Source of the DNA: Candidatus Nanoarchaeia archaeon
GTDB taxonomy: Archaea; Nanobdellota; Nanobdellia; SCGC-AAA011-G17; GW2011-AR18
Assembly (NCBI GenBank): GCA_035655455.1
Contig: DASRUL010000006.1
Coordinates: forward strand, 1-48,609
Direction: 5' to 3'
Length of the DNA: 48,609 nt
The translations under genes were made by a program, and so were the position numbers. Numbering within the stretch: position 1 is the stretch's first letter; every line of letters starts with the position of its first letter. Under the pieces are notes generated by a model. The model worked only from the letters and a program-made list of their open reading frames with translations. It was not told the DNA's origin and searched no databases. Below are positions 6,977-24,325 of the stretch, piece after piece.

Positions 6977-8156
6977 AAGAAACAAAATACACCTTTCCCG
7001 CATTATCATCAGACACAAGCAAGCCATCCCTGAAATTTATCATATCCACTGGCCTTCCCCTCACCACAGCACCGTCAAGCCAGCCTGTCGCGAAATCCCT
7101 AAACGACTTTTTTTCCAAATCAACCAAGAAAATCTTGTATCCAGTCGGAGGTTCCCTATTCCACGATCCATGAGACGCGACAAACATCTTCCCACGGTAC
7201 TCCTCAGGAAATTTGTTTCCAGTGTAGACCGCCAATCCCAACACGCCAGAATGCGCAGGCAAATCAACAAGGCTCGGCTCTGTACTTGCGCAAGGATTCT
7301 TTTCTTTTTCAAAACCAGCGTCATGAACTTGCCTTCCATAACAGTACGGCCACCCATAATCCTTTCCCTCCTGAAGAATATTTATCTCATCAGGAGGAAG
7401 ATCATTTCCAAGCTCGTCCCTCCCATTATCAGTAGCATAAATCGTTCCCTCATGCTCAATAAAACCAACAGCATTCCTCAGCCCAGTCGCAAACGGCTTA
7501 CAACTCCTTCCCTCAAGATCACACTGCTGAATCGTACCCCGGCGCTTGTCCTCCTCGATACACACATTACACGATGACCCAATTGAAATAAGCAGTTTGT
7601 CGTTAACAATCTGAATCGTTCTCGTCCAATGAGAACCCTCTGGAAGGTCCACAACTTTCTCCATCGTTGTAAGATCAGGCTTGTTCCCCTTTTCTTTTAT
7701 TCTCATCACCCTATCCTCTTCAGCAATATACACCCAATCCTGATAGAAAGCAATCCCATGAGGATTATTCAAGTTCTCAAGAAAAACGCTCATCGTTTCC
7801 ACTTTCGCATCTTTGTCCTTATCCTCCAAGGCATAAATCTTTCCCTGCTTCGAGACTGTAACAAACACCGTGTCATCCTTCAACGCCAACAAGCGCGCAC
7901 CATTATTCGGACCAGGCGTCGAAACAAGCGATCCTCCAAGGTTGTCAGCGAACGTCTCAATCTTAAACCCCAGAGGCATCCTCACGAAATCCAACCCGCT
8001 TGTGTGAAGCGCAGGCTTCAACGTGAGCTTCTCAGCAACAACCACGAGCACAAACACAAGCACAGCAACAACAAGCACAACCTTTATTATTTTTTTAAAA
8101 AGAATCAAAACCATTATCGCAGCCACACCAAGCATTATCCACACAAGCGGGTCCAC
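6966..8156 (-). CDS. membrane-anchored PQQ-dependent (soluble-type) sugar/sorbosone dehydrogenase-like beta-propeller
   Basis: 396 aa. It has an N-terminal TM (LVWIMLGVAAIMVLILF...VVAVLVFVLVVVA). Family-typical motifs are GLRNAVGF, DNGRDELGNDLPPDEIN and GKDYGWPYCYG. A TATA element (TTATATAA) at 8177-8184 lies about 25 nt upstream. Confidence 0.75.
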   Translation of the reverse strand: MDPLVWIMLGVAAIMVLILFKKIIKVVLVVAVLVFVLVVVAEKLTLKPALHTSGLDFVRMPLGFKIETFADNLGGSLVSTPGPNNGARLLALKDDTVFVTVSKQGKIYALEDKDKDAKVETMSVFLENLNNPHGIAFYQDWVYIAEEDRVMRIKEKGNKPDLTTMEKVVDLPEGSHWTRTIQIVNDKLLISIGSSCNVCIEEDKRRGTIQQCDLEGRSCKPFATGLRNAVGFIEHEGTIYATDNGRDELGNDLPPDEINILQEGKDYGWPYCYGRQVHDAGFEKEKNPCASTEPSLVDLPAHSGVLGLAVYTGNKFPEEYRGKMFVASHGSWNREPPTGYKIFLVDLEKKSFRDFATGWLDGAVVRGRPVDMINFRDGLLVSDDNAGKVYFVSYEG

Positions 8157-8252
8157 ACCACCCTCTTGATCTACTATTATATAAACATGATGAACTTTTC
8201 AAAAACTTTCTACAAAACCTTTAAAAGAGGTATGCTTTTGTTCATCACTTAC

Positions 8253-8348
8253 GGGCCCATGGTCTAGCGGTTATGACGTCTCCTTGACGTGGAGGAGGTC
8301 CCCAGAAACTTCAAAAAAAGTTGGGGAATTCGAATCTGGGTGGGCCCA
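8253..8348 (+). tRNA. tRNA-Val(GAC) with a 23-nt non-canonical intron in the T-arm (8306-8328)
   Basis: Hand-folded. Acceptor stem is GGGCCCA/TGGGCCC plus discriminator A. D-arm is GTCTAGCGGTTATGAC. Anticodon arm is TCTCC-TTGACGT-GGAGG, giving anticodon GAC. Variable loop is AGGTC. The T-stem CCCAG...CTGGG and T-loop TTCGAAT are split by AAACTTCAAAAAAAGTTGGGGAA. A TATA-like TTTAAAA lies about 30 nt upstream. No CCA is encoded. Confidence 0.85.
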
Positions 8349-8485
8349 TTCTCCTTCAAGGTGTCTTGAATCTCGTGAAGACAGAATACAATCTTGAGAA
8401 AACGTCTAAGAAGATTTTAACTTCATTACCTTAAAGCATGCTGAAGCGTTGTCAGAACTGAAGTTAATGTCATCTTGAAGATTTC

Positions 8486-9193
8486 CTATGGAAAAATTTT
8501 CGCGAGACGCACCCCAAGCCTGTCGTCCTCAACGGAATGCCCCCTGTCAAGGACCAAGCCCAACCCGGAGCTCCAGCTACGGATAGCCGCACTTTCATCT
8601 CCATTAACATGCCAATGATAAAATTCTCCACTAGCTTTTACACTAGTTGGATAGCCACATTCATTAATATCTTGCCTGTCAAAGCTTCCATCTTTTCCTG
8701 GAAGAGATACCCTCTTTTCCTTAGTTCCTACGCAGACTTTCTTCCTGCCTTTTACTAAATCCTCAAGCCATTCCGCTTTTGCGTTAATCATCTCACTGAG
8801 GGTCGCTTGAGCTTCCGCATTGCCCTGCTGTACTAGCTCTTTTATGTAAGGAATACATACTCTGTACATTAAACCAACAGTTGGTAGTTTGTATCCTAAC
8901 GCCTCAACTAGTTTTCTCGCATTTGGATGATTGATGTTAACCACATATTGCCCATCAGCTCCAGTCAAATTTAAACCAGCCCTTGTTCCCGCATCTCTCA
9001 CACTTCGATCATATTTTAAAACACCTTTAGCAATTTCTATTCTTGAACATGAATCTAAATCCCCATAACCAGATTCTCTTAAGAATTGCCTGTAAGCAGG
9101 AGTTGTGACTTGATGAATTATTGCCCTATCAAATACAAAGAAATCCAAGTTTCCCCGCCTGTTTGTATCCTGTTCTTCCCTAGGTCCCACCAT
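8486..9193 (-). CDS. hypothetical protein, possibly a divergent FGE-sulfatase (SUMF1/DUF323) fold
   Basis: 235 aa. It weakly resembles FGE-family landmarks: ALGYKLPTVGLMY (compare GxRLPTEAEWE), GEFYHWHVNGD (compare GNVWEWV) and a C-terminal IRSWSS...DDRLGVRLAK (compare RGGSW...GFRLA). Composition is distinct from neighbouring genes: lower GC and no C/A third-position bias. Confidence 0.4.
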   Translation of the reverse strand: MVGPREEQDTNRRGNLDFFVFDRAIIHQVTTPAYRQFLRESGYGDLDSCSRIEIAKGVLKYDRSVRDAGTRAGLNLTGADGQYVVNINHPNARKLVEALGYKLPTVGLMYRVCIPYIKELVQQGNAEAQATLSEMINAKAEWLEDLVKGRKKVCVGTKEKRVSLPGKDGSFDRQDINECGYPTSVKASGEFYHWHVNGDESAAIRSWSSGLGLVLDRGHSVEDDRLGVRLAKIFP

Positions 9194-9305
9194 TTTGCTC
9201 TACTTATGGAAAGAACATAATTTTATAAAACTTTATATTTGTGGATGTCAAGGTTCTATAACTTGCTCAGTAGATTTATATACAAGTTACTACAATTGTA
9301 TACCT

Positions 9306-9605
9306 ATGGCTGAAAGCGTTTCTGTGAGAATAGGCGAAGATGAACTTTTAGAAATAGAGAAAATTTCAAAATTTGAAAAAAAATCGAAATCAGAGGTGTT
9401 GCGATCTGTTTTAGAGAAAGGGCTAAAAGAGGAAAAGTTAGAGATTGCAATAAAACGTTTTAGTAAAAATGAGATAACTATCGCGTCTGCAGCCAAGCTC
9501 GCGGGCGTTTGCTTGTCTGCTTTCATGGATGCTCTGTCAGAAAGAAAAATTCGATTTCACTATGGTTTAAAAGAGCTTGAGAAGGATTTTGAGGGTTTGC
9601 TTTGA
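9306..9605 (+). CDS. antitoxin: ribbon-helix-helix N-terminus fused to a UPF0175-like domain
   Basis: MAESVSVRIGEDELLEIEKISKFEKKSKSEVLRSVLEKGL is RHH/CopG-like. ITIASAAKLAGVCLSAFMDALSERKIRFHYG is UPF0175-like. The stop overlaps the start of the downstream PIN-like gene (TTGA). Confidence 0.7.
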   Translation: MAESVSVRIGEDELLEIEKISKFEKKSKSEVLRSVLEKGLKEEKLEIAIKRFSKNEITIASAAKLAGVCLSAFMDALSERKIRFHYGLKELEKDFEGLL

Positions 9606-10135
9606 TTTCTAATTCGTCACCCTTAATCGCTTTAACAAAAGTCGGTCTCTTAACAGAGGCAAAGAAACTTTATTCTTCTCTTGAAGTTCCAGAGGTAGTT
9701 TTTAACGAGAGCATACTTGCAGGTTTAGAGAGTGGAAAACAAGATGCGATCATCTTGAACGCGCTCTACAAAGAAGGGTTCATTAAAAAAATAAAATTGG
9801 ACAAAAAACACGCTGAGATAAGCAAGAAAATTGAGACAGAATACCACCTAGACCAAGGGGAAGCAGAAGTTCTTGCTCTTGCTCTCCAATTAAACCAAAA
9901 AACAATACTTCTAGACGAGGCTCTGGGAAGAAATGTTGCAGAACTGTTTGAGTTGACCCCGAAAGGCTCGTTAAGGGTTATTTTAGAGTGCTACAATCAA
10001 AATTTAATCACAGAAGAAAAAGTATATGTGAAAGTAGGGGAGTTAGTAAAAATTCTAAGGATAGATTCTGAGGTTCTCACTCGCCTTTGGGATTTATTTG
10101 AGATTGCAAAGAAGAAGAAAACAAATAAAAAATGA
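9602..10135 (+). CDS. PIN-like (DUF3368-type) putative toxin
   Basis: 177 aa. SNSSPLIALTKVGLL...VPEVVFNE and DQGEAEVLALALQLNQKTILLDEALGR match the DUF3368/PIN pattern usually paired with UPF0175. The first acidic residue appears replaced by Asn and the start is a TTG, so activity and start are uncertain. Confidence 0.6.
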   Translation: MISNSSPLIALTKVGLLTEAKKLYSSLEVPEVVFNESILAGLESGKQDAIILNALYKEGFIKKIKLDKKHAEISKKIETEYHLDQGEAEVLALALQLNQKTILLDEALGRNVAELFELTPKGSLRVILECYNQNLITEEKVYVKVGELVKILRIDSEVLTRLWDLFEIAKKKKTNKK

Positions 10136-10148
10136 ATGCATCGTTATC

Positions 10149-10156
10149 TTTATATA
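10149..10156 (+). promoter_or_regulatory. TATA box for the giant-protein operon
   Basis: TTTATATA is centred about 27 nt upstream of the ATG at 10180. This supports 10180 as the true start (near-leaderless) and an operon promoter independent of the upstream TA pair. Confidence 0.55.
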
Positions 10157-10179
10157 CAGTTAAAAGACATTTCTCCATC

Positions 10180-12315
10180 ATGAAAAAAAAGGGGCAGGTC
10201 AGCGTCTTTGTCATCATCGGAATCCTTCTCGTCCTGCTCACCGGAACCTACCTCGCCTACAAATACTTCGGCATTGAAGAATCACTCAGAGAACGACGCC
10301 AACTCCTTTCCAGAGTTCCAGCACAATTCCAACCAGTCGCCAGCACCCTCAACCAGTGCGTAGCCAAAGTAACAGCAGACGCCCTCACCCTCGTCGGAAG
10401 CCAAGGAGGTTACGCAACGCTTCCCCAAGATCCACTTCCCACAACTTTTATCACTCCAATCAAAAGAAACCTCGACATCATCCCAAACTCAGGCTTCCAA
10501 ACCCCCCTCTGGTTCAGAGAAACAGGAAACGGCCTCCAAGAAACAGCAATTCCAACAAAAAAACAAGTCGAACAAAACCTCGCCCTTGTCATCAATGAAA
10601 AATTCTCCTCCTGCGTCGAAAATCTGACAAGCTTCACCAGCCAAGGCTTTCACCTCCTCAACATCGCAGACAAGCCAACATCTGCTGTAAGAATCCTTCC
10701 AGAGCGCGTCGAGGCACAGGTTGAATTTCCAGTAACGCTCTCCCTCAACGAGATCCAATACACCCTCGAGGCCCACACCGCAGAAGTGGAAACAACGTTT
10801 GGACAATTGTACGACGCGGCTGTAGAAATCTTCGAAACAGAAAACACCGGCTTCTTCCTCGAAAACAAGACACTCGACCTCCTTATCGCAGACGATGCAA
10901 TCCCTTTCTCAGGATCAGACCTCTCCTGCACCGAACACGTCTGGTCAAAGAGAGGCGTGATTGAACGAGTAAAAAACGCGCTCTTTGAAAACGTCGCGGC
11001 CATGACCATCAAAGGATCAAACACTGACAAGGATCCAGACTACCTCACCTTTGACGCGATGAAACGCGACAGAAAAGCCATCACCATCAACCTGATGTAC
11101 AATCCGGCATGGCCAACCTTCATCGAGATCAGCCCCTCCAAAGGAGACACCTTGACCTCTGACCCAATCACAAAACACACCGGCAATCTCGTCACGAGCA
11201 TCTTATCTTCGTATTTTTGTTTGAACAATTACCATTTTGTTTACACCATCAAATATCCAGTGCTTATCACCCTCACGGACGAACAAGGATTTAACTTCCA
11301 ATACGCAACAGAAGTCATCCTCGAAAGAAACCTACCCAGAAAAAACACCATCCTTCCCCTCACCCTTCCTGACACGACCTCACCATTATGTGACTATTCA
11401 ACAGCACCACTTACTATCACCACGCTCGCTGTCAACAACGAAGGATTCTTAGCGCCTTTAAATAACGTCCAACTCTCCTTCAAATGCTTTCCCACAACCT
11501 GCACCCTTGAAGAAACAGGCAAAAACAAAAACACCGTCACCCTCCTTAGCCCACCCTGCGTCAACGGCATTGTCGAAGGCCAAAAAGAAGGCTACTTCAA
11601 CGGAAAAACAGTCGTCGCAACAAACACCAAAGAGCACCAAGACATTGATCTCGTCCTCGAACCTTTGTACGAAAAAAACGTAGAAGTCTTTGTCATCGAA
11701 AAAGGCACAGGGAAAACGCGAGAACCTTACTCTTCAGAACTCGCAACCTTCGAATTCAGACACAAAGACGCACGCTTCACCACCAGCTACTCCACCCAAG
11801 AGGAAGGAGCATCCTGTGACAAGGACGAAGACTGCGGCCCGGGACTTGACTGCAAAAGAGATTCATGCATCTTACCCAACTGCGAGAAAGACACTGACTG
11901 CTCCTTACATCAAAAGTGCGTCTCCCAACAATGCGCGCCTAAAGACAATATCAAGCTCCTTGTCGGAGATTACTTTGTTACCTCTTCCCTCTCCAGATCA
12001 AGCAGCATCCCACTCACGACACAAAAACGCGAAGTAGAAAAATGCGTCGAAACCGGAAGACAAGGGTTACTTGGCCTGTTCCTCACAGAAGAAAAATGCT
12101 TCAAAACAGAAATCCCGCCAGTCGAGCTCAAAAACGTCATCGTCGGAGGCGCAACCTTCGAATTCACGTTTGATCGTGAAACGCTCAACAGCGAAGAACC
12201 TTTGAAACTCTACATCCTCACTGACGAACTTCCCGCGGACCTCGAAGGATTCGCTGAAATCCAGACAAGCTTAAGCACAAATAAAGACCATCCAATGTTC
12301 AGGTACCCGGCATGA
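10180..12315 (+). CDS. large secreted protein with a prepilin-like (class III) signal peptide and tandem 4-Cys modules (operon gene 1)
   Basis: 711 aa from ATG 10180. The N-terminus is MKKKG|QVSVFVIIGILLVLLTGTYLAY: a basic stretch, then G-Q, then a hydrophobic helix. Near the C-terminus are two tandem modules, SCDKDEDCGPGLDCKRDSC and NCEKDTDCSLHQKCVSQQC (nt 11812-11940). I recognise no protein family. Confidence 0.8.
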   Translation: MKKKGQVSVFVIIGILLVLLTGTYLAYKYFGIEESLRERRQLLSRVPAQFQPVASTLNQCVAKVTADALTLVGSQGGYATLPQDPLPTTFITPIKRNLDIIPNSGFQTPLWFRETGNGLQETAIPTKKQVEQNLALVINEKFSSCVENLTSFTSQGFHLLNIADKPTSAVRILPERVEAQVEFPVTLSLNEIQYTLEAHTAEVETTFGQLYDAAVEIFETENTGFFLENKTLDLLIADDAIPFSGSDLSCTEHVWSKRGVIERVKNALFENVAAMTIKGSNTDKDPDYLTFDAMKRDRKAITINLMYNPAWPTFIEISPSKGDTLTSDPITKHTGNLVTSILSSYFCLNNYHFVYTIKYPVLITLTDEQGFNFQYATEVILERNLPRKNTILPLTLPDTTSPLCDYSTAPLTITTLAVNNEGFLAPLNNVQLSFKCFPTTCTLEETGKNKNTVTLLSPPCVNGIVEGQKEGYFNGKTVVATNTKEHQDIDLVLEPLYEKNVEVFVIEKGTGKTREPYSSELATFEFRHKDARFTTSYSTQEEGASCDKDEDCGPGLDCKRDSCILPNCEKDTDCSLHQKCVSQQCAPKDNIKLLVGDYFVTSSLSRSSSIPLTTQKREVEKCVETGRQGLLGLFLTEEKCFKTEIPPVELKNVIVGGATFEFTFDRETLNSEEPLKLYILTDELPADLEGFAEIQTSLSTNKDHPMFRYPA

Positions 12316-15300
12316 GAAAAAAAAGCGTGATCGCACTGTTCTGCATGATGCTGATAGTCACCAGCCCCATGGTTCTCAGCCAACGCTTCTCAACATCCTC
12401 AGACTTTAACCTCCAAGAGTCAGAACCAATCGTAGATTTCACCACCTCGCCCTTTGACCGAGCCTCAGCTGTTTACAGCAAAACGTTTGGCACGCCCCAA
12501 GACGTCGGAGAAGCACTCATCATCTACGCAGGACAGCCACAACCACCCCTCATCAGAGCCTCACTCGCAGAAGACCAAGAAATACCTGTGTTTATTCCCC
12601 TCAAAACCACAGACATTGGTTCAGTGCTTTCAACCCTGACAGGAGATGTTTCAGAACGAGACCCATTCACAGGATTAACAAGCATTCCCCGCATTAGCAA
12701 CGTCGTTGTCAGACTCAACAAAACAAATCCTTACGTAAAAACAGTCAGATACATCCCGCCAAAAACAGGTTTCACAAAAGACAACCTTGGTTATTTAGTC
12801 GTCATTTTAAACAAGCTGAAAAACGAAACCAGCCTGCCAACCTCAGGAAGCATCCAAGCAGGCATCGCCAGCGTCCAACTTCCAGGAGAAGTCTTTTCCA
12901 GCCTCAACAACACGCCAGTCATTCCCTTAGAACTCAACGCAGAAATCCTTTTCGACCTCACCTCAGGAACCCTGCTCAGCCTCGGAGAACAAACCCTCAC
13001 CCTCAAACAAGAATCAGAACAAGCATTCCTGCAAAAACCCTCACGAGAAGAAAACGCGTTTTACAACAAGAGAGCGTATCTCCGCGCGAACGCCATCTCA
13101 TCAGACAGGGTATCGTTTACCGTGTACAATAAAGAATTACATTCGCTCTCTCTCTTTAATCCACCAAACGAACCAGCAGGCGTACCTGTTTCCTCGCTCA
13201 CCCTCTCCCGCTCAAGCCCAGAATCACGACCCATCAGACTCAGAATCAGCTCCAACGCGCTCGAAGACACCGTGCGATTTAGGCTCAATGAGATTGTCCT
13301 TCCAGAAGACAGGGTTAGCTACCGATTAATCGCAGGCGGAAAAACCTACGAAAGAAAAGCAAACATCCGCAGTCCCTTGTTTCCGCGATCACGCTGGGAA
13401 ATCCAGAGAATAGCACAGTCAGACCCTGAACCAACCACCCTCAAAGACCTCATCGAAAAAGGAATCATCCTTGACACTACCTCAGAAGAAAAAGCAAAAC
13501 AAGCAGCATCAGGAGAACTCAAGCTCATCACGCACACCCTTGTCCTCAGAAACACCGCAACAGGAGAAACACGAACACTTCAACGAAATGTCCTGACAGG
13601 CCTTGTTTTTTCCTTTGACACAGCACCAGTAGACGACACCACCGCGAGCTTCTTAGAAAAAAAATACTGCCCAGAACCAGATCCAGACAAGGCAGACTTA
13701 GGCTGCGCAGCAGTCCACACCTTTAAAAAAATCACCCAAGACTTTCCCCATACAGCAGAAGCAAAAGACAGCCACAAACAACTCTTCGAGATTTACGAGC
13801 AGAAGCTCATAGATTACGCCGCGTGCGATAAGACAGGACCAAATCCCAATGATGTCGCCAACCTCAACGAGTGCCAGGCCTTCCTCAGGGACACACAAAC
13901 ACTTGCTTATTACTACGCGAGCAAAATCCAAGCTTCAGACCCAGAGCTCATCCAGCGACTGCAAGCGGGATACGGAGGAGCCGGCGGCTTCGAATATTTG
14001 ACAGACGAAGGCATCTCAGTCCAACTCAACTACGTAGAGAAAATCACAAACGAAGAAAAAGGCTCCGCCACACTCCGCGTGAACGGCGTCGAACATCAAA
14101 ACTTGCGGGTAGGCATAAACATTCCAGGAACTGAAGGCACGGCAATCACAGGAGAACCCTTCACCCTTGAAATCAGCGCCATCAGATCAAGCACTGTCCA
14201 TATCATAAAGAGAGCAAAAACCTCCCAACGCGTTCTCGGCTCGTCACAAACCCTCGTCCTCGGAAAAAATAATGTCCTCCTTCAGGAAAGAAGATCTGCA
14301 GACGGACGTGTTGAGCGAGAATCTGTTGACATCGAACTTGTGAACGTCAATACCAACGTCGAGGCATCAGTCAGCATCATCCCAAACGCAGGCCTCGGCC
14401 TCGCACGCTCTTCCTTCACTGTCATCATTCCTGTCGAGCCACGACCATTGAAGAATATTGGAGAGAAATTAAAAGACCACATCAACGCCACGAGAAAACT
14501 GGTCGCGGACTTAGACAAGGTCATCCAAAAACTCGACAGCGTCGTCAGAACATGGAAGAAGATTTGTTTGGTGACGTTCGCGTTTGTCACAGTCAAAAGC
14601 TCCTTCCTCGGAGGAACAACACGGGCACTCGCACGCCGCGGCGTCAGCGAGCTCTATAAAAAAGACTGCAACCAAAAAGCCAGCACAGGGCTCTTCGAGA
14701 GCGCTGATGATTGCCTAGCATCCAGAGCAGATGATATCTCCAAAGACGTCGACGCGAACCAGCGCGCGATTGAACATGTCCAACAAGAACTCTCAGGACA
14801 AACACCAGCCACGCTTAAAACGTGCGGAGACGTTCCCTTCCAAGAAGTCAAAGCCCTCGGCGCGACTATTGACGACTGCAGAGACTATTTACGGCTAAAC
14901 GCGCTCAGGAGCGACACCATCTCAGACACTTTCGCCAAAGGCGTTGATCAACAATTATCAGCACTCAAATTCGAAGGAAAGAAACAACAGTACGAAGCAG
15001 CAGAACAATGGCTCAAGGGTTATCCAGACTTCACGAGAAAGTTTGGCGAGGATGAAGACGCAAGGCTTGAAGCGCTAAGATTTTACACAAACTCGGCAGA
15101 AGCACAAAAAGAAAGCGCAACCTCACAAAAAAATGTTCTCCCTCTCTCACATCTCCTTCCCACAGAAGACAACAAAGCAACAGCCCTATTACCTCAAACA
15201 GGAACGAATGATCTTGGACCAACAACCCTTGTCAAAGTCACCAGGCTGCAACGCGCAGTCTACGAATCAGGAGCAGAAGGTGTTGTGAGCAGCATACAAA

Positions 15301-17510
15301 AGGCTTACTGCAAAGACTTACATGATCCTCAATGCATCCAAGGCCAGCTCGATCTTTGGAACAGCATTTCAGACGAACCCTTATACGCGCGCCAAGAATT
15401 TGTGAATCCTGCTACCCTTATAAAAAATTTGGGAACTGCACACCCTTACCTTTCAAGCTATACCTTGCTCACGACAAAAAATAAAGCGCTCGCCATCTCC
15501 AGCACAACACCACCAGCAGACTTCAACCTCTACTCCAGCCAAGTCGTTGACGTCAACAACCAACTACGAAGCCTAGACTACGCCTACTCACAGGGAGCAG
15601 AGGCAGGCGGAGACCTTCTCGCACAATACGACCCAGAATCAGGCCAAGCCTTCTGCTACCCCACAGGAAGAGACGGAGAATACGTTCTTGTCTTAGAACG
15701 CTTCCAAGGCACAGGAAAAGTAAAAATCTTCAGGGCAATGAACGTCGGCCTTAACGGCGTCATCGAATGCGGCTCAGGAGACGATGTCATCGTTCTTGAC
15801 GAATCAGCACTCAGCCTGCCAGCAAACCAGAGAAAAAGACTTGATTATTTATCCATTGTTGACCGCGCGCCACGCTGCCAAAAAGAAGGAACAAGAGTAG
15901 GAAGCGTCACAAAGAAAAACGGAAAAACAGTAGGCGTACGCTGCAGCACCAAACAAGCAAAACTCAACCTCCAACTCAACAGCCCAAAATGCATCGACGT
16001 CATGGAACCAGAAGACTGCACCATCCTGTTCAACGCGTGCGATCCAGTCATGTGCCCAGCAACACGCTGCAACCTCGGAGGCAAGTACCAAGTAGACGAC
16101 GTCATCCAATCAGGCATTGTCGGCTCAGTCTTTCTCTGCGCACCAAACGTGAAACAAGGCGTTGTTGTTCCTTTCTGTTTAACAGGAATACTCGCAGGAC
16201 TCAAACACATCAAGAGCATCCTCCAATCCTATGCAGATTGTTTAGAGGCGAACCTGAAAGACGGAAAGAACGTCGGCTTCTGCGATTATATCAGAAGCGT
16301 CGGCGTCTGCGAATTAATCTGGAGAGAAACCATTAACCTCTTCAACATCAAAGGCGGCGTCATTGATTATTTATCAGAAAAGGCCTTTGGCGAGCCAGAA
16401 GGAGGCGCAGAATACTTGACCTTCCAGCAATCCCTCCAAAACGTCGGAGACTCGTTCAACTACTTTACCACAGAATACTCCAACACGTACGTGGCGGCAT
16501 TAAAAGGGTCATCCACAGAAGAAATAGGATCCCAAGTATGCAGGCTTGGCGTTTACGGAAGACTGCCAACTGTTGGGGATGTGCTTGACAAACTCTCAGA
16601 ACCTGAAGATCCCCCACAATTCTTCGCGCTTCTCGACGAGGCGCCCTATGTCCAAGACATCGGAGAAGCACCCCTTGTTCCACGCGTCCCCTCAAGCGCA
16701 CAGGCCTTATCCAATTATAAAATATTTTATCACATCTACGCGGGAACAGGATTCGCAGCACAACAAGCAGTCTTCACAGACCCAGTCAATCAGGCAACAG
16801 GGCGACCAAACAAAGCAGTCACCTACTCTGTGTACTTGATCAATAAAGAATTAGGCTTACCTCCCTTGTATATGACCTCAGAAGAAGAACTCGGCCAAGT
16901 TTCCGCAACCATTCCCAGAGGGCAGTATGTGCAAAAATCAGTCCAGCGCGTTAGCCAAACAGGATACAACGAGGTATGCATCAATTTAAATGGAAAGCCC
17001 TCTTGCGGATTTGGAAAAGTCTCATCAGCATTCTCCCTGAACTATATCAATGATAAACTTGTCGAAGCAGAGGCAGGCAAGAAGGTTAAGAGCGCAGAAG
17101 AATGCCTTCCAGACCCGCCAACAACAGGAGCAGCGCTCGGCAGCTTCGTCACCCCAGAACGTTACGGCCTCGTGAACACTGGAGTGGTACGCGTCTGCAA
17201 CCCAACACCACCAACAGCAGACACGACGCGATGGGCAGCAGCCGGAGAATGCGGCAAAGACAAGAACGGGGTTGATCGCGGCATATGCTGGCTTGACAGA
17301 AACTCGTTAAATATTAAAAACCTCGAAACAAGAAGCGACGTGCTCGGAGCATTAAAACAACGCGACATTCTCAAAAAACAAGGACTTGAAGGAGACATCC
17401 TCACAGCAGAGCAAAGCAACCAACTCCTCGAACAATTACGAGAACGCCGCGACCATGTCCTTGAAAAACTCCGGCTAGAAGTACAACGCTTGTTAGAGGA
17501 GGAAGCATGA
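12312..17510 (+). CDS. giant secreted protein, 1732 aa (operon gene 2)
   Basis: The ATG overlaps the upstream stop (ATGA). It has a Sec-type signal (MRKKSVIALFCMMLIVTSPMVLSQ), a central hydrophobic segment (ICLVTFAFVTV), a region with 12 Cys in about 150 aa plus hydrophobic stretches (nt ~15870-16330: NACDPVMCPATRCNLGG...GIVGSVFLCAPN...VVPFCLTGILAGL) and a C-terminal coiled coil (LLEQLRERRDHVLEKLRLEVQRLLEEEA). Confidence 0.85.
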   Translation: MRKKSVIALFCMMLIVTSPMVLSQRFSTSSDFNLQESEPIVDFTTSPFDRASAVYSKTFGTPQDVGEALIIYAGQPQPPLIRASLAEDQEIPVFIPLKTTDIGSVLSTLTGDVSERDPFTGLTSIPRISNVVVRLNKTNPYVKTVRYIPPKTGFTKDNLGYLVVILNKLKNETSLPTSGSIQAGIASVQLPGEVFSSLNNTPVIPLELNAEILFDLTSGTLLSLGEQTLTLKQESEQAFLQKPSREENAFYNKRAYLRANAISSDRVSFTVYNKELHSLSLFNPPNEPAGVPVSSLTLSRSSPESRPIRLRISSNALEDTVRFRLNEIVLPEDRVSYRLIAGGKTYERKANIRSPLFPRSRWEIQRIAQSDPEPTTLKDLIEKGIILDTTSEEKAKQAASGELKLITHTLVLRNTATGETRTLQRNVLTGLVFSFDTAPVDDTTASFLEKKYCPEPDPDKADLGCAAVHTFKKITQDFPHTAEAKDSHKQLFEIYEQKLIDYAACDKTGPNPNDVANLNECQAFLRDTQTLAYYYASKIQASDPELIQRLQAGYGGAGGFEYLTDEGISVQLNYVEKITNEEKGSATLRVNGVEHQNLRVGINIPGTEGTAITGEPFTLEISAIRSSTVHIIKRAKTSQRVLGSSQTLVLGKNNVLLQERRSADGRVERESVDIELVNVNTNVEASVSIIPNAGLGLARSSFTVIIPVEPRPLKNIGEKLKDHINATRKLVADLDKVIQKLDSVVRTWKKICLVTFAFVTVKSSFLGGTTRALARRGVSELYKKDCNQKASTGLFESADDCLASRADDISKDVDANQRAIEHVQQELSGQTPATLKTCGDVPFQEVKALGATIDDCRDYLRLNALRSDTISDTFAKGVDQQLSALKFEGKKQQYEAAEQWLKGYPDFTRKFGEDEDARLEALRFYTNSAEAQKESATSQKNVLPLSHLLPTEDNKATALLPQTGTNDLGPTTLVKVTRLQRAVYESGAEGVVSSIQKAYCKDLHDPQCIQGQLDLWNSISDEPLYARQEFVNPATLIKNLGTAHPYLSSYTLLTTKNKALAISSTTPPADFNLYSSQVVDVNNQLRSLDYAYSQGAEAGGDLLAQYDPESGQAFCYPTGRDGEYVLVLERFQGTGKVKIFRAMNVGLNGVIECGSGDDVIVLDESALSLPANQRKRLDYLSIVDRAPRCQKEGTRVGSVTKKNGKTVGVRCSTKQAKLNLQLNSPKCIDVMEPEDCTILFNACDPVMCPATRCNLGGKYQVDDVIQSGIVGSVFLCAPNVKQGVVVPFCLTGILAGLKHIKSILQSYADCLEANLKDGKNVGFCDYIRSVGVCELIWRETINLFNIKGGVIDYLSEKAFGEPEGGAEYLTFQQSLQNVGDSFNYFTTEYSNTYVAALKGSSTEEIGSQVCRLGVYGRLPTVGDVLDKLSEPEDPPQFFALLDEAPYVQDIGEAPLVPRVPSSAQALSNYKIFYHIYAGTGFAAQQAVFTDPVNQATGRPNKAVTYSVYLINKELGLPPLYMTSEEELGQVSATIPRGQYVQKSVQRVSQTGYNEVCINLNGKPSCGFGKVSSAFSLNYINDKLVEAEAGKKVKSAEECLPDPPTTGAALGSFVTPERYGLVNTGVVRVCNPTPPTADTTRWAAAGECGKDKNGVDRGICWLDRNSLNIKNLETRSDVLGALKQRDILKKQGLEGDILTAEQSNQLLEQLRERRDHVLEKLRLEVQRLLEEEA

Positions 17511-20500
17511 AACTCTTTTCTTCTCTCAGCATTTTCCTTCTTATGGTCTTTTTAGGAAGCGTCCTTGCCACAGCACAAGTAACTTCTGAAGACGTCAAAG
17601 AACGCCTGATCGGAGCAGCATTCTTTTTAGAAGATGGAGGAGAACCTTATTTTTATTGTCCAAGAGTCAAAGAAGGATCCTGCCTGAAACTAAGCCCAAT
17701 AGGCTGGCTTGACAATTCAGGAAATATTGTTAATGATGAAGACGCTCTTAAAAGTTTAAATGATCTTCTCGCAAAACAAACTGAAGAGACACGCAAGACC
17801 TTCATAGAAAAAGCGTTTATTGGTGATACATTCACCTGGACAAGCCCTGCTGGAAAGAGGATTGATTACATATACTGTCCTGAAGTAAAAGAACAAGCAT
17901 GCTCAAGGGCAAGCCGCACAGGATGGTTGATCAAAGAAACCGGAAATGAGGCTTTAGCGACCAAAGGAGGAGAAGCTGTCTTAAACCATTTGAACGAGCA
18001 ACTCAAAACAAAAGTCGATGAAGCTTTTTCATCAACAATCGAAGACGAATCATCAGAAGAGCAAGTGGTTTTTAGAACAGGTGACTGCACATCTCGTGAA
18101 CGAAAATTTTCAAAAAACAAGTGTTTGGAACGCGAAGAGAACGCAGCAAGCCTCATCAGAGAATTTCTAGGATTAAATTACGAGACAGTTCGAACCTACT
18201 CTCTTGAAGACAAAGCAGTCATTCAGGCTTTATACGATCGCGCAGTCGGATTCAAAAGAATCGCAGAATTAAAACGGCAGTATGAAGGCGCTGTCGAGGT
18301 GAAGCCCGCGGAGAAGAAGCTGTTGGTTCCTGTAGGGGGTAATTTTGAGGCGGTGTTGGATCATGAACAGTCCGCATTAACAGTGAGTTATACGGATCCT
18401 GAAAATAGTGATCCTGATCTGAAGTTCAGGTTGTCGTTGAATGGACAGCCTCTTCCAGCAGTTTTTACAAAAGACGGAGAAATCGCTCGCGCGCAGATTA
18501 GTTTCGAGGATGTTGAGAAGAAGGTTGGTTTTTTTGGTATTTTCAAGCGTTTGCCTGCCTTGGTGCTTTCAGTTCAGCATAAGGGAATAATTAAGGAGTT
18601 TCATCCTAATCTTGTGAGAAGGGTGACTGGCGAAGTTAGTGAAAATGCGGAAGTTATTTTTACATATAATGACAAGGATCGTCTCGGGATTAGCGTAAGT
18701 GGCGTTTTGGCTGGAGAACAGGCGTTGTCTTTCAGAGATAAGGTGTTTGTGTTGACGCCGAACTCTTTGAAAGGAGAACCTTCTGGAAACGCTGCGTTTG
18801 ATGTGAAGGATTTCCCCGCCTTGTTTGAAGCTGTGAAATCAGATGATAGCATTTTAGGCGAGGTTGAATTTGTGGTTAATAATCAGCAGAGAAAGCAGGC
18901 ATATGCTCCCACGGAAATATATTATATGTATACGCGGAAGGTTGTTGAGAGGGAAGCTGTTTCTGCTGAGACTCCAGAGGTTGTTTCTCCTGCTGAGGCG
19001 TGTGGAAAATGTGGAGACGGTATTCTTTTAGTTTGTACAAAAACGGCGTGTGAAACTGAAACGCTGGAGAAGTATGGAGCGCGTTGTAAATTCTTGCCAA
19101 ATATTCTAACGTTTAATCAGTTAGGAAATTGCATGCCACTCGCGCAGGAACTAACCTTGAGCCCTTCAGAGATTATCCCTCAAGTGGAGAAGTTTTGTAC
19201 GCCGAGCCAAACTAAAGTAATTAAGGAAGAACTGGATTTCGAAGCGAAGAGCCGTCGCGTGTTAGGTTTCAGAAAATTCGTGGAGAGCGCGACTGATGAC
19301 GGGATGGAGCGAATGCTCTTGTACGCGATCATGAGTGTTGAGTCTGGAGGGGATCCTAATGCGCAGCATGAGAATGAGGGTGGCTCTGTTGATGTCGGGC
19401 TGATGCAATTCAATGATGGCACTGCGCCGCGCGTGTTTATTCCTTATGAAGACCAGTTTGGAAACAGCTGTGGGAATACTAATACGAAGGAGACTAATGT
19501 TTGCTATGTGTGCGATAAAAAGGGTTGTGGGAGCGGTGACGCAAGGAGGGTTCCTGAGATCGCGATTAAGGGCGCGAAAAAGTTATTGGATTTAAATAGA
19601 AATGCTATTCGCCGTGAATTTGAGAAGTCTGTTGGGAATGGGGAAACGCCGGCCCAGTTAAGTGGAGAAACGTTAGAGAAGCTCACGATTTTGTCTTATA
19701 ATCGCGGTCCTGGCAGGATTATGGGCGCGGTAAAAGAGCTTGCTGCACAGAAAGGAGATAAAGGCGGTGAAATTACGTTTGAGGAAGTTGTCGAGCGTGC
19801 CAAATTTGGCAAGGGCGCGCTTTGTTATGTTTCGCGCGTGTTATTTTACGCTGGCGCCTACGCTGGAGAGTTCGGAATTGGTGGTACAGAATCGACACCG
19901 CCGCAAGCTGTAGCTCCCGCGCGAGTGACGGACGATCTTACGCCTGAAAGGCCAAAAGAGATTTCAAAAGGCGCTCCGGTTGATGCTGAGCATGTATACT
20001 ACTTCACTGTTGACGGCAGATTCCGTTTTCCTAATGAGAATCCTGTTCCTCAGAATACGTTGCCCGTGAAAGGGGCAACGTACGCTGTTGGTCAGAGTGA
20101 AGGGATTTTTGTTGAGCAGACGACGGAAGAGCAGATAACGTTTGCATTCTTTAGGACGAATGCGCTGGGCGTTGTTACGCAAGTGGATTATCCGATTGTT
20201 TTGAATAGTCAGCAAGAAGAGGCATTCCTTGTTAAAGGAAAGTTTAGGGTTTTCTGGCAAGGAGGTAAGAACCTTGGGGTGTTGTATCGGCCTGTAGTGC
20301 AGGAACCTGGCGAGGACGCGGAGAGCGCGCGAGTGAATCCCGGAGAGGTATACTTGTTTTCTGAGATAAGTCCGACGCTTTTGAATCCAATTTTTAAATT
20401 AACAGATAAAGAAGAGCCTGTACGCGGGAAAGAGTACATCTCCCCGCAGAAAGGATCGGCTGGCGGGCGTGCTGTGAAAGGAGTTTATATCCTTGATGTT

Positions 20501-20668
20501 AATACCCATGACGGGATTACCTTTTTCTATTTCAGCACAAATAACAAAGGTGTTGTTGGGGGAATGACGCGGGCGACGGTGACCGAGACGAAGACTGAGG
20601 AGGTTCCTCAGGGCACATATAGGTTTTATTTTGCTCCTCCAGATGTGTTGCGGGTTGAAAAATTATGA
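17507..20668 (+). CDS. secreted 1053-aa protein with a GH23/SLT lytic-transglycosylase-like domain (operon gene 3)
   Basis: ATGA overlap with gene 2. Sec signal is MKLFSSLSIFLLMVFLGSVLATAQV. Two tandem Cys-pair repeats occur: YFYCPRVKEGSCLKLSPIGWL and YIYCPEVKEQACSRASRTGWL. SLT motifs are LLYAIMSVESGGDP (E-S), VGLMQFN and ILSYNRGPG, at nt ~19300-19760. Two C-terminal beta-rich repeats contain ITFAFFRTNALGVV and ITFFYFSTNNKGVV. Confidence 0.85.
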   Translation: MKLFSSLSIFLLMVFLGSVLATAQVTSEDVKERLIGAAFFLEDGGEPYFYCPRVKEGSCLKLSPIGWLDNSGNIVNDEDALKSLNDLLAKQTEETRKTFIEKAFIGDTFTWTSPAGKRIDYIYCPEVKEQACSRASRTGWLIKETGNEALATKGGEAVLNHLNEQLKTKVDEAFSSTIEDESSEEQVVFRTGDCTSRERKFSKNKCLEREENAASLIREFLGLNYETVRTYSLEDKAVIQALYDRAVGFKRIAELKRQYEGAVEVKPAEKKLLVPVGGNFEAVLDHEQSALTVSYTDPENSDPDLKFRLSLNGQPLPAVFTKDGEIARAQISFEDVEKKVGFFGIFKRLPALVLSVQHKGIIKEFHPNLVRRVTGEVSENAEVIFTYNDKDRLGISVSGVLAGEQALSFRDKVFVLTPNSLKGEPSGNAAFDVKDFPALFEAVKSDDSILGEVEFVVNNQQRKQAYAPTEIYYMYTRKVVEREAVSAETPEVVSPAEACGKCGDGILLVCTKTACETETLEKYGARCKFLPNILTFNQLGNCMPLAQELTLSPSEIIPQVEKFCTPSQTKVIKEELDFEAKSRRVLGFRKFVESATDDGMERMLLYAIMSVESGGDPNAQHENEGGSVDVGLMQFNDGTAPRVFIPYEDQFGNSCGNTNTKETNVCYVCDKKGCGSGDARRVPEIAIKGAKKLLDLNRNAIRREFEKSVGNGETPAQLSGETLEKLTILSYNRGPGRIMGAVKELAAQKGDKGGEITFEEVVERAKFGKGALCYVSRVLFYAGAYAGEFGIGGTESTPPQAVAPARVTDDLTPERPKEISKGAPVDAEHVYYFTVDGRFRFPNENPVPQNTLPVKGATYAVGQSEGIFVEQTTEEQITFAFFRTNALGVVTQVDYPIVLNSQQEEAFLVKGKFRVFWQGGKNLGVLYRPVVQEPGEDAESARVNPGEVYLFSEISPTLLNPIFKLTDKEEPVRGKEYISPQKGSAGGRAVKGVYILDVNTHDGITFFYFSTNNKGVVGGMTRATVTETKTEEVPQGTYRFYFAPPDVLRVEKL

Positions 20669-21429
20669 AAAAAGCAAGCGCTTTGTTTAATAAGAATTTT
20701 TTGAAGGTGTTCTTTTTTGATCTTCTCCTCACCATCCTCTTACTCTCCCTGCTGCTCTTTGTCAGAACACAATCAAAAACCTACTTTGAAGATATCCAAG
20801 CATTCTCAGGAGAAATCGCAGAAATAGAACAAATCCTCAGCAAGGAAGACGCCTCAGCAGAAGAAGTCGCACGCGCCCAAGAAACAATCTCAACACTAGA
20901 CAGCATCACCACAAAGTCTTTGCTCTTAAACAGCGTCCTCTTTCCCTTGGCTGTCATCATTCTCTGGATGACCATTGGCTGGCTGTCATGGAGAGGTTTC
21001 ACCAACGTTTCCTGGAAGAGGTTTGCGTTATCCTCTCTGCTTCCTCTCACGCTCTTCTTTTTCCTGATTCTGTATAGTCTCGATATACTCTCCTTGATCC
21101 TGTTCAAAGATACCCAATCGTCCTGGATTATTTTTTCTTTCCTCCTCGTCCTCTTTTTAACAGCAGTGTATTTCTTCCTCATCATCATAGGAAAACCAAC
21201 ACTCACCCTCAAAGAACTATTCTTTTTTGGCATTCACACTTTTAAGAAAATATGGCTGAGACTTTTCCTTCTCACCCTCTTAGGAATTATTTACCTTACT
21301 CTGATCTCGCTCGTGTTCGTTTTCACTTATGTGAACATGTCCATCCTCCTTCCAGCACTCTTCCTTCTCGCTGTCCTTCTACTTCTTGCATTCCAAAAAC
21401 AAGCCTTTGTTAAAGCACTAGAATCTTAA
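20665..21429 (+). CDS. polytopic membrane protein (operon gene 4)
   Basis: ATGA overlap with gene 3. 254 aa with about 6 hydrophobic helices (FFFDLLLTILLLSLLLFV, VLFPLAVIILWMTIGWL, LSSLLPLTLFFFLILYSLDILSLILF, IIFSFLLVLFLTAVYFFLIII, LFLLTLLGIIYLTLISLVFVF, ILLPALFLLAVLLLLAF). Confidence 0.75.
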   Translation: MKKASALFNKNFLKVFFFDLLLTILLLSLLLFVRTQSKTYFEDIQAFSGEIAEIEQILSKEDASAEEVARAQETISTLDSITTKSLLLNSVLFPLAVIILWMTIGWLSWRGFTNVSWKRFALSSLLPLTLFFFLILYSLDILSLILFKDTQSSWIIFSFLLVLFLTAVYFFLIIIGKPTLTLKELFFFGIHTFKKIWLRLFLLTLLGIIYLTLISLVFVFTYVNMSILLPALFLLAVLLLLAFQKQAFVKALES

Positions 21430-21468: not shown

Positions 21469-21603
21469 TGCGGGGAACAGGATTTGAACCTGTGAAGGCA
21501 CTAAGCCACCAGGTTTCTTCAAACAACCACCTAAGCTAAGCCTTTTAGTTCTTTCTCTAAAGAATCTAAAATCTGGCCCGTTTGTCCACTTCGGTATCCC
21601 CGC
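21469..21603 (-). tRNA. class II tRNA, most likely tRNA-Leu (candidate anticodon UAG), with about 51 nt of intronic sequence in the anticodon arm
   Basis: Reverse complement: acceptor GCGGGGA/TCCCCGC plus discriminator A73. D-arm is CCGAAGTGGACAAACGG. The long variable arm is TGGCTTAGTGCCTTC. T-arm is ACAGG-TTCAAAT-CCTGT. The anticodon region is 68 nt rather than 17, and contains a 12-bp hairpin (TTTTAG-A-TTCTTT/AAAGAA-CTAAAA) and two CTTAG motifs. A TATA-like element lies about 28 nt upstream (21628-21634). Confidence 0.75.
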
Positions 21604-21700: not shown

Positions 21701-21922
21701 ATGATTGAAGTAGAATCACAACTCAAAGAATGGGGTAATTCCTTCGGCGTCCTCGTTCCAAAAGGCGTGACATTAAAAGAAGGTCTAAAAGAAGGAGACA
21801 AAGTTTTATTATTCCTCACCAAAAAAACAGACGCCCTCAAAAAGACATTTGGAACTGCAAAATTCAGAAAGACTACAGAGGAAATTCTCAAACAAGGGGA
21901 TAAAGACTCTTGGGATGAATGA
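21701..21922 (+). CDS. vapB: AbrB/SpoVT-fold antitoxin (VapB-like)
   Basis: 73 aa. SQLKEWGNSFGVLVPKGVTLKEGLKEGDKVLL is a swapped-hairpin AbrB/MazE-type motif. It overlaps the downstream PIN gene by 8 nt (ATGAATGA). Confidence 0.75.
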   Translation: MIEVESQLKEWGNSFGVLVPKGVTLKEGLKEGDKVLLFLTKKTDALKKTFGTAKFRKTTEEILKQGDKDSWDE

Positions 21923-22283
21923 ACAACTATTCTTTTTTGACACCTATGCTTTTTTTGAAATTATCAGAGGCAATCCCCTTTACGAAAAATACAAGAACGT
22001 TCCAGCAATAACATCTATCTTCAACCTTGCAGAACTAAATTACAACCTTAAAAAAGAACTAAAAGAAGAACAAGCTGACTACTATACTAATGAGTACGCT
22101 CCTTTTCTTGTAGAGGTGGATCTTGAAACACTAAAAAAGGCTATGTCTTTCAAGAAGAAATATAAATCCTTTTCCATTCCAGATGCAATAGGATACCACT
22201 TAGCATTAAAAATGAACGCAATGTTTCTTACAGGCGATGAAGGATTTCGCCACCTTCCTAATGTAGAATTTGTTAAAAAATAA
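21915..22283 (+). CDS. vapC: PIN-domain toxin (VapC-like)
   Basis: Starts MNEQLFFFDTYAFFEI, which carries the first PIN Asp. The C-terminus is IPDAIGYHLALKMNAMFLTGDEGF. I chose the internal ATG at 21915 rather than the track start at 21849. Confidence 0.75.
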   Translation: MNEQLFFFDTYAFFEIIRGNPLYEKYKNVPAITSIFNLAELNYNLKKELKEEQADYYTNEYAPFLVEVDLETLKKAMSFKKKYKSFSIPDAIGYHLALKMNAMFLTGDEGFRHLPNVEFVKK

Positions 22284-22993: not shown

Positions 22994-23098
22994 GATACGA
23001 AGGTGCCCTCAAGCCATTTATTTAAGGCTTTCGCTTGCCTTAACACAAAAACGTTTTTGAACAAAAGTTATTTAAACAAAAGGCGCTTGCAGCAACAC

Positions 23099-23476
23099 AT
23101 GGTCGTCTCACAAGCACGCTCGAGAAGAAAACTCACAGGCGGAAGATATGTTGCAGCAAACAAGAAAAAATCCTATAGCTTAGGCAACCTTCCAACGTTC
23201 ACAAAAATCGGAGAGCCTTCCCACAAAGAACGACGCACAAGAGGAGGATACCCCAAACTTGTCTCACTCAGCGTGAACAAAGCCAATGTTTTTGATAAAA
23301 AATCAGGGAAAGCAAAGCTCGTTGAGATCAAGACTGTTGTCGAAAACCCAGCAAACAGGAATTTCGTCCGAAGAAACATCCTTACCAAGGGCGCAATCGT
23401 AGAAACAGAACTCGGAAAGGCAAAAATTACTTCTCGTCCCGGTCAACAGGGTTTTCTGAACGCTGTTCTTCTGTAG
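23099..23476 (+). CDS. rps8e: ribosomal protein S8e
   Basis: MVVSQARSRRKLTGGRY... is the typical eS8 N-terminus. The C-terminus is AKITSRPGQQGFLNAVLL. A TATA-like GTTATTTAAACAA lies about 27 nt upstream of this ATG; the track start at 23003 is too far upstream. Confidence 0.85.
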   Translation: MVVSQARSRRKLTGGRYVAANKKKSYSLGNLPTFTKIGEPSHKERRTRGGYPKLVSLSVNKANVFDKKSGKAKLVEIKTVVENPANRNFVRRNILTKGAIVETELGKAKITSRPGQQGFLNAVLL

Positions 23477-24212: not shown

Positions 24213-24286
24213 CGTTTAAAACCATAAAATAAGCCTGTTTTAGCCAAAAACACCCCTTCCCAAGACTGCCCACAAATTTCGGAAGG

Positions 24287-24296: not shown

Positions 24297-24325
24297 ACTT
24301 CCTTCTTTACTATATAAAGGTTTTT

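Follow-up and report, generated by a model that had tools for sequence, protein, structure and literature searches.

Few uncultured archaea are as widespread as the Woesearchaeota and Pacearchaeota, whose hosts and lifestyle are not known. Binding of bacterial walls, or predation on bacteria, by means of giant proteins has been proposed independently for them (PMC8204110, PMC9723730; see also PMC12352652). A protein family specific to the Pacearchaeota and Woesearchaeota, fam00969, belongs to a 51-family module (Module 98) and was proposed to bind or degrade bacterial walls (Castelle 2021, PMC8204110); Vigneron 2022 argues for predation, and a gene of the AR20 genome was noted there and by Castelle 2015 (PMC9723730). 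Moreover, a 2025 study showed by experiment that archaeal peptidoglycan hydrolases of other phyla kill bacteria and noted the abundance of such genes in Nanoarchaeota (PMC12352652). Here we analyze a four-gene operon (genes 1 to 4) in a 48,609-nucleotide (nt) stretch of archaeal DNA, contig DASRUL010000006.1, which we call the window and whose coordinates are used throughout. We favor, with somewhat better than even confidence, the interpretation that the operon encodes a Woesearchaeal (DPANN) cell-surface apparatus that binds the peptidoglycan wall of a bacterium and breaches it locally.

The giant gene 2 product is the part of the operon closest to what has been described, and its family probably corresponds to fam00969, an assignment made by description and not by comparison with the fam00969 member list. 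The two are alike in lineages, size range, extracellular location, the presence of an SLT domain in part of the family, and proposed role, and the AR20 genome has the gene 1-gene 2 pair. Unlike fam00969, gene 2 of the window lacks SLT, which is instead found on the separate gene 3. An earlier note on this DNA, made from its letters, could name no family for the operon and treated it as an orphan system. That claim went too far: gene 1 and gene 2 are both members of very large families, specific to these lineages, that have been noted in print (PMC8204110, PMC9723730). We conclude that the giant murein-transglycosylase proteins of Woesearchaeota and Pacearchaeota, as possible binders of bacterial walls or tools of predation, are already published (PMC8204110, PMC9723730).

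Relatives of gene 1, sought by a pattern and tblastn scan of one genome per species, were found at no fewer than 416 places in species genomes, including the complete genomes AR20 (CP010426) and Pace33H (CP061211), and a database search with gene 1 returned 49 homologues. Among the gene 1 matches listed, the labels were Woesearchaeota, Pacearchaeota, and Nanoarchaeota, with a few generic ("archaeon") and three bacterial ones. The 80 that were fetched all proved to be Woesearchaeota, Pacearchaeota, or Nanoarchaeota or else mislabeled contigs with archaeal neighbors. A gene 2 homologue lay directly downstream of gene 1 in 67 of 84 fetched loci, and the two genes overlapped by 4 nt in 40 of those 67 pairs; in the remaining 17 loci the contig ended 1 to ~2,500 nt past gene 1, too short to score the poorly conserved N terminus of gene 2. 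Exhaustive HMMER searching with the gene 2 core (amino acids [aa] 690 to 1732) returned 1,013 clusters at 50% identity with an E of ≤1e-3 and 842 with an E of ≤1e-30. HMMER was used in place of a search with a 31-sequence gene 2 profile against a 5.8-billion-protein database, the word-index step of which saturates: it returned 5 close relatives only and missed the protein P0005, although the C-terminal part of P0005 is a row of that alignment. Complete copies of gene 2 in the loci encode 1,695 to 2,707 aa, a contig-truncated open reading frame (ORF) reaches 3,329 aa, and a database representative reaches 3,741 aa.

Genes for ribosomal protein S8e and for TFB lie within ~3 kb of the pair in most of the 31 loci having each, and they do so in both orders, the Woesearchaeales and the Pacearchaeales; the window has the same neighbors. 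From the conservation of this neighborhood in both orders, we conclude that the pair is an ancient chromosomal locus, passed on vertically, and is not a mobile element. Synteny of all four genes in relatives, a point raised by the earlier note, was found in a related locus, L005, which has the four genes in order, but what is conserved across the family is the pair. We conclude that the conserved unit is gene 1 plus gene 2 and that genes 3 and 4 are clade-restricted add-ons.

Several features of the related loci were observed in passing. Three loci deposited as "bacterium" (L051), "Muribaculaceae bacterium" (L057), and "Patescibacteria group bacterium" (L074) carry the archaeal gene 1 or gene 1-gene 2 pair, L074 also has archaeal TFB, S8e, S3Ae, L44e, and LSM genes, and all three are probably misbinned Pacearchaeal contigs. 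S8e and TFB do not keep one order and orientation with respect to the pair: L074, for example, departs from the window in a manner that fits inversion of the block. In at least 23 loci (L026, L031, L032, L036, L038, and others, mostly labeled Pacearchaeota or Woesearchaeota), a conserved family of small proteins of 62 to 85 aa with two transmembrane (TM) segments is encoded ~25 to 330 nt upstream of gene 1. The family is absent from the window; in the lineages that have it, it may supply an additional part of the system.

Some features of the locus could be taken to mean that the four genes come from an integrated virus, a conjugative element, or a mobile island, in which they would form a structural or entry module. 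Pairs of PIN and antitoxin genes stand on both flanks, one gene 2 relative has a TMP_3 match and one a Phage_lysozyme2 match, and GC content is 0.47 to 0.49 in the operon versus ~0.40 to 0.42 in its immediate flanks. Other housekeeping parts of the window are similar to the operon in GC content, however, and the S8e/TFB neighborhood is found in 31 loci of two orders in addition to the window. Among the scanned ORFs of the window, which were larger ones of at least 144 aa, there was no relaxase and, in agreement with the earlier note, no integrase, capsid gene, or secretion or pilus ATPase; the AAA+ gene Orc1/Cdc6 is housekeeping. For type IV secretion and conjugation systems, with their VirB1-type SLT, pilin, and VirB6-like proteins, no VirB4 or VirD4 ATPase or relaxase was found among the scanned window ORFs or in the inspected relatives, and there was no plasmid match. 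PHROGs gave the SLT match alone, no fold match was obtained in BFVD, and no relatives were found in IMG/VR, in phage records searched by tblastn, in plasmid records, or with PADLOC. A viral or mobile origin is thus largely refuted, and we give it next to no credence; a function in defense was likewise rejected.

To survey the domains carried by the gene 2 family, the C-terminal parts of 55 members (the window and 54 relatives) were scanned with Pfam. Counted as matches and not as proteins, the scan gave 22, in up to 22 of the members: SLT (9, in 9 of the 54 relatives), Peptidase_M23 (3), Peptidase_M15_4 (3), Glucosaminidase (2), and VanY, Amidase_3, Phage_lysozyme2, DUF2272, and TMP_3 (1 each), and one relative, in L035, combines several hydrolase domains in a single protein. 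Wherever its position was checked, the hydrolase domain lay C-terminal to the conserved core, in an extension that also accounts for the extra length of gene 2 relatives. Murein hydrolase domains were found in no other ORF of the ~20-kb loci (for gene 3, see below). The activities concerned cut MurNAc-GlcNAc, MurNAc-L-Ala, and D-amino-acid peptide bonds, which are present in bacterial murein and, to our knowledge, are not found in pseudomurein or in protein S-layers. Repeated independent gain of different murein hydrolases on one scaffold is strong evidence that the gene 2 scaffold works at the bacterial wall. Moreover, since the wall-degrading domains all target bacterial murein, the partner they imply is a bacterium. 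A cell-surface role in host interaction, as suggested by the earlier note, is the best reading, and the bacterial partner is what that note had left unsaid. As a separate observation, a lytic transglycosylase of AR20 is cited in the literature, yet the AR20 gene 2 tail gave no Pfam SLT match at an E of <0.01; the AR20 SLT domain may be divergent or may reside in another gene.

The window belongs to a clade in which the hydrolase is encoded apart from the scaffold. Gene 2 tails beyond the conserved core are 65 to 147 aa long in this clade (the window, L001, L002, and L005) versus 267 to 1,069 aa elsewhere. The window, L005, and L001 each have a separate gene 3, while the L002 contig ends directly after gene 2. 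Gene 3 homologues were found only in these nearest relatives, L005 and L001 (the latter partial, cut by the contig end). Searched as a single sequence, gene 3 had no match among PDB sequences and no relatives in species genomes. Hydropathy of the gene 3 product indicated one N-terminal hydrophobic segment, consistent with a Sec-type signal, and no anchor. Its paired cysteine motifs, CPRVKE (aa 51) and CPEVKE (aa 124), fall within two ~70-aa modules that are homologous to each other (z = 13 versus shuffles in local alignment), and its C terminus is a pair of homologous ~110-aa modules (z = 8). The SLT domain was matched by Pfam PF01464 (E = 2.5e-11; 43.6 bits versus a cutoff of 21.3), by PHROG transglycosylase families, and weakly by IagB in NCBIfam. 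Its motifs are intact, with VESGG at 611 (the catalytic Glu of the ES motif being aa 612), GLMQ at 631, and SYNRG at 730 to 734, and we take ES, GLMQ, and (A/S)YNxG to be the motif set of family 1 lytic transglycosylases. We conclude that gene 3 encodes a predicted SLT/GH23 lytic transglycosylase and, as judged from its signal and domains, a putative secreted effector.

The hydrolase content of gene 3 itself differs between relatives. The L005 gene 3 (L005 positions 17427 to 21071; 1,214 aa) has three murein hydrolase domains, a weak SLT match at the Pfam cutoff (E = 2e-4), Peptidase_M23, and Amidase_2, whereas that of the window has SLT only, plus two extra N-terminal modules. Directly upstream of the L005 cluster of genes 1 to 4, on the minus strand at L005 positions 6413 to 9337, lies a gene for a 974-aa protein with fn3, an SASA-type carbohydrate acetylesterase, and an internalin-like domain; one might speculate that the esterase strips O-acetyl groups that block lytic transglycosylases. 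Gene 4 encodes a membrane protein that matches no known family. Gene 4 homologues were found only in L005, L006 (AR20), and L011, always directly after gene 2 or gene 3, and their alignment contains no conserved stretch. In AR20, the gene 4-like ORF (L006 positions 18405 to 19103) has a 46-nt overlap with the end of the gene 2 homologue.

A rival explanation for the hydrolases is that they remodel a murein-like wall of the archaeon's own for the insertion of a large surface structure, in the manner of bacterial VirB1 and FlgJ. Specialized SLT enzymes do accompany bacterial trans-envelope machines, as the IagB match recalls, but no murein synthesis genes were found among the scanned ORFs of the window, and the variety of glycosidases, amidases, endopeptidases, and carboxypeptidases looks like weaponry rather than a single dedicated remodeler. 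Murein synthesis is not known in archaea, and domains of this kind are regarded in the literature as foreign to them (PMC8204110). We consider remodeling of the archaeon's own wall very improbable.

The layout of the operon is as the earlier note had described it. ORF calls confirmed the four plus-strand genes, and reading the sequence confirmed the ATGA overlaps and the TATA box (Table 1). Likewise present were the class III-like signal of gene 1, which is conserved among relatives, the Sec-type signals of genes 2 and 3, the roughly six TM helices of gene 4, the cysteine-rich features of genes 1, 2, and 3 (8 Cys, 12 Cys, and the CP-x-VKE pair, respectively), and the SLT domain, which was the single domain that Pfam returned for all four operon proteins. 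The view of a translationally coupled operon of secreted and membrane proteins is also supported, and the nearest loci point to an archaeon of the DPANN type. Because gene 1 homologues all begin M-x-K-[KR]-G-Q, the true start of gene 1 is the ATG at 10180. The position of the TTTATATA box suits a leaderless or near-leaderless transcript starting at about that ATG, and the position is what suggests that the box acts as a promoter. The host is an archaeon since the window codes for S8e, TFIIB, Orc1/Cdc6, and FtsZ, and among the matches listed, the nearest relatives of genes 1 and 2 are metagenome-assembled genomes of Woesearchaeota or "Nanoarchaeia." We conclude that the host is a Woesearchaeal DPANN archaeon.

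Table 1. Positions of the operon, its parts, and neighboring features in the window (a slash in a protein sequence marks the predicted cleavage site)
Feature	Position	Strand	Description
Gene 1 ORF	10132/10180-12315	+	711 aa from ATG at 10180
TATA box	10149..10156	+	TTTATATA; last base 23 nt ahead of gene 1 ATG; sequence read directly
Gene 1 N terminus			MKKKG/QVSVFVIIG; class III (prepilin-like) signal or N-terminal anchor
Gene 1 8-Cys double module	11812-11940 (aa 545-587)	+	Clade-specific insert
ATGA overlaps	12312; 17507; 20665		Three gene junctions; sequence read
Gene 2 ORF	12312-17510	+	1732 aa; Sec-type signal, variable N-terminal half, conserved core, C-terminal coiled coil
Gene 2 Cys-rich segment	15870..16330	+	12 Cys in aa 1186-1340; 55-member conservation profile
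Gene 3 ORF	17507-20668	+	1053 aa; Sec signal, two CP-x-VKE modules, KALYDxAxGFKRIAELK motif region, SLT/GH23, two C-terminal ~110-aa modules
Gene 3 SLT (GH23) catalytic domain	19286..19711	+	aa ~594-735
Gene 4 ORF	20665-21429	+	254 aa; membrane protein, ~6 TM helices (6 hydropathy peaks), ~50-aa loop between TM1 and TM2
S8e and TFB genes	23003-25324		Neighbors of the pair
Orc1/Cdc6 AAA+ gene	26260		Housekeeping
Upstream toxin-antitoxin pair	9195-10135	+	UPF0175/RHH + PIN
Downstream toxin-antitoxin pair	21702-22283	+	Small AbrB/MazE-like ORF (by eye, 21702) + PIN
tRNA	21469-21603	-	135 nt; Rfam 40.6 bits
Nucleotidyltransferase-HEPN ORF	1388-3229	+	613 aa; fused toxin-antitoxin-like architecture
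MazE-like ORF	35378-36295		305 aa; N-terminal MazE-like domain only

Gene 1 has a pilin-like start and, in its model, adhesin-type domains. Class III signals consist of a basic N terminus, a [KR][GA] cleavage site, a Q or hydrophobic residue, and then a hydrophobic helix. Gene 1 fits this FlaFind-type pattern, with MKKKG followed by QVSVFVIIGILLVLL in the window sequence, and hydropathy indicated a single, N-terminal hydrophobic segment. The strict pattern was found in 63 of 84 gene 1 relatives, and most of the others show [KR][GAS]Q by eye; across the family, K3 and Q6 are at least 90% conserved and the [KR][GAS]Q motif is near universal. The Pfam Class_IIIsignal/DUF361-type model, presumably PF04021, matched neither gene 1 nor any of 47 family members. 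An AlphaFold2 model built from 47 sequences (pLDDT 86) has an N-terminal helix of ~40 residues that could serve as anchor and stalk, a second helix, an alpha/beta domain at approximately aa 97 to 400, and then beta-sandwich domains. Gene 1 thus resembles archaeal type IV pilin-like proteins in its basic N terminus, [KR]G/Q site, hydrophobic helix, and long modeled N-terminal helix, but unlike them it is 711 aa long, has multiple adhesin-like domains, lacks a Pfam Class_IIIsignal match, and has no pilus assembly genes nearby among the scanned ORFs. A gene 1 profile found nothing significant among PDB sequences, and the only Foldseek matches in PDB were stalk domains of Gram-positive pilins and adhesins, the TIE protein, and SlaB, each with a low TM-score. 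We conclude that the fold similarity of the modeled gene 1 protein would be that of a generic Ig/CnaB-like beta-sandwich. The 8-Cys insert of gene 1 is missing from the L003 homologue and from the consensus of 47 homologues and gave weak Dickkopf_N/DUF7107-like matches only.

Gene 2 combines a giant size with a conserved core. The conserved core comprises approximately aa 700 to 800 and 1100 to 1660, and hydropathy indicated one N-terminal hydrophobic segment and no anchor, a hydrophobic N terminus being shared by 64 of 67 relatives. Among 55 family members, 10 of the 12 Cys residues of the Cys-rich segment fall in columns at least 90% conserved. The segment has the motif FNxCDPVxCPx(S/T)RCxLGG...QSGI(V/I)GS..LCxPN...PxCLTGIxAGL, and columns of this block are also invariant in the further alignments A2, A4, and A5. 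The most conserved part of the entire family is aa 1227 to 1340, in which small-residue-rich hydrophobic helices are framed by invariant cysteines. The model of the core begins with a long helical hairpin, which is followed by a helical bundle, beta domains, the Cys-rich helical region, further beta structure, and a terminal coiled coil. A gene 2 profile found nothing significant among PDB sequences. TM helices inside gene 2 were considered at aa 750 to 768 and 1265 to 1300 but are not proposed, as hydropathy was under threshold and the family consensus shows no hydrophobicity in the first of these segments.

Gene 2 has parallels among known scaffold proteins. Phage tape-measure and tail-tip proteins, of which T5 Pb2 is an example with a muralytic domain, and polymorphic effector scaffolds likewise have a long coiled-coil scaffold and an exchangeable C-terminal peptidoglycan hydrolase and breach the bacterial wall on contact, as the gene 2 family may do. 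Unlike phage tape-measure proteins, gene 2 shares no core sequence or fold homology with them and is accompanied by no other virion genes, and the pair is chromosomal, vertically inherited, and archaeal.

The two-gene architecture also recalls the S-layer of Sulfolobales, in which a giant secreted protein (SlaA) is paired with a membrane-anchored beta-sandwich stalk (SlaB). Genes 1 and 2 could accordingly be the main S-layer-like envelope proteins, gene 1 as the anchored stalk and gene 2 as a giant canopy, with the hydrolases as optional decorations. This would agree with the near universality of the pair, its conserved locus beside S8e and TFB, the strong consensus TATA box, the lack of a recognizable hydrolase in more than half of gene 2 relatives, and the Foldseek match of gene 1 to SlaB (8qox_B; E = 8e-5). 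That match, however, is to a generic beta-sandwich (TM 0.12 to 0.18), the gene 1 anchor is N terminal and not C terminal, and neither sequence homology nor a Pfam, NCBIfam, or PDB-sequence link to any S-layer family was found; no match to virus or conjugation families was found either. Gene 2 has only 4 N-x-S/T sequons in 1,732 aa, its Cys-rich core has numerous Cys, Gly, and Pro motifs that do not vary between orders, which is unusual in lattice proteins, and recurrent fusion to eight murein hydrolase families is no known S-layer trait. We regard an S-layer-like function as unlikely, though less so than the other rivals.

Alternatively, the proteins might be bacteriolytic enzymes that are released freely and kill bacteria without contact or scavenge wall material, with no role in attachment. 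Both gene 2 and gene 3 carry a Sec signal but lack an anchor, secreted peptidoglycan hydrolases from archaea of other phyla have been shown by experiment to kill bacteria and Nanoarchaeota are rich in such genes (PMC12352652), and a predatory, "vampiristic" reading has been proposed (PMC9723730). A diffusible lysin would have no need of a conserved core of well over 1,000 aa beyond the hydrolase or of an obligatory anchored gene 1, however, and ultrasmall cells profit little from diffusible enzymes. Many family members, moreover, lack a hydrolase. We consider release of free lysins improbable.

On the favored interpretation, an apparatus that binds and breaches the bacterial wall, probably on contact, the pilin-like N-terminal helix of gene 1 would hold the protein in the archaeal membrane, and gene 1 would project, as its model suggests, a stalk of beta-sandwich domains. 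Gene 2 would be exported by Sec and, lacking an anchor of its own, would be held by gene 1 as a stoichiometric partner, as suggested by the unfailing adjacency of the two genes and by their 4-nt overlap in most pairs. The gene 2 core could serve as a scaffold or delivery module. In most relatives, this scaffold would have at its end a "warhead," a murein hydrolase whose type varies. In the clade of the window, the warhead would be the separately secreted gene 3, in which SLT is flanked by duplicated putative binding modules, and gene 4 would be a clade-specific membrane accessory, perhaps for anchoring or assembly.

Several observations weigh against this interpretation. We know of no host for any Woesearchaeote or Pacearchaeote, and the near-universal presence of the pair beside housekeeping genes fits a structural envelope role equally. 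Gene 2 of the window has no enzymatic domain of its own (no Pfam domain), and a recognizable hydrolase was found in at most ~40% of gene 2 relatives, which indicates that the core function is not hydrolysis itself. The model of the gene 2 core is only moderate (pLDDT 71 and pTM 0.60 from 41 sequences), and its fold had no match at an E of ≤1e-3 in PDB or BFVD and so provided no positive mechanistic clue. Neither a prepilin peptidase nor a pilus ATPase or platform protein was found among the scanned window ORFs, such that processing of gene 1 is putative. Finally, no sequence homology of gene 3 to the fused C-terminal extensions was detected, as hidden Markov models of the extensions and a post-coiled-coil motif scored nonsignificantly; it is the architecture of the loci that suggests gene 3 might be a fission product of such extensions.

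A more specific form of contact can also be envisaged, in which the gene 1-gene 2 pair would be the conserved core of an undescribed, archaea-specific contact machine with swappable warheads and a fold that has no detectable match. Once the wall has been cut, the Cys-framed hydrophobic helical segment, the most conserved element of gene 2, would engage the membrane of the bacterium and open a feeding conduit. We hold this form to be distinctly doubtful; if it were true, a very large DPANN radiation would live on bacteria by means of this locus.

For many Woesearchaeota and Pacearchaeota, a near-universal, vertically inherited pair that repeatedly gains murein hydrolases is the strongest genomic pointer so far to physical contact with bacteria and not with archaea. 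The locus also names proteins that can be tested, gene 3 and the fused domains for lytic activity and genes 1 and 2 for localization at contact sites, and in the window it takes a split-effector form, with a separately encoded 1,053-aa hydrolase protein and a hydrolase-free scaffold. In the literature searched, we found neither the obligatory gene 1 partner with its class III signal nor warhead swapping over eight hydrolase families, and likewise neither the split-effector four-gene form, the gene 4 accessory, the S8e/TFB neighborhood, nor the lack of a fold match for the gene 2 core.

Neighboring features of the window were also recorded (Table 1). Toxin-antitoxin pairs lie upstream and downstream of the operon; in L004, too, a PIN gene directly precedes gene 1, and the downstream PIN gene of the window has a homologue in L012. 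Two further ORFs of the window carry related domains, one a fusion of a nucleotidyltransferase with HEPN and the other a MazE-like domain. Lastly, Rfam indicated a tRNA ~40 nt past the gene 4 stop on the opposite strand, and this tRNA presumably contains an intron; ARAGORN reported no tRNA in the window.

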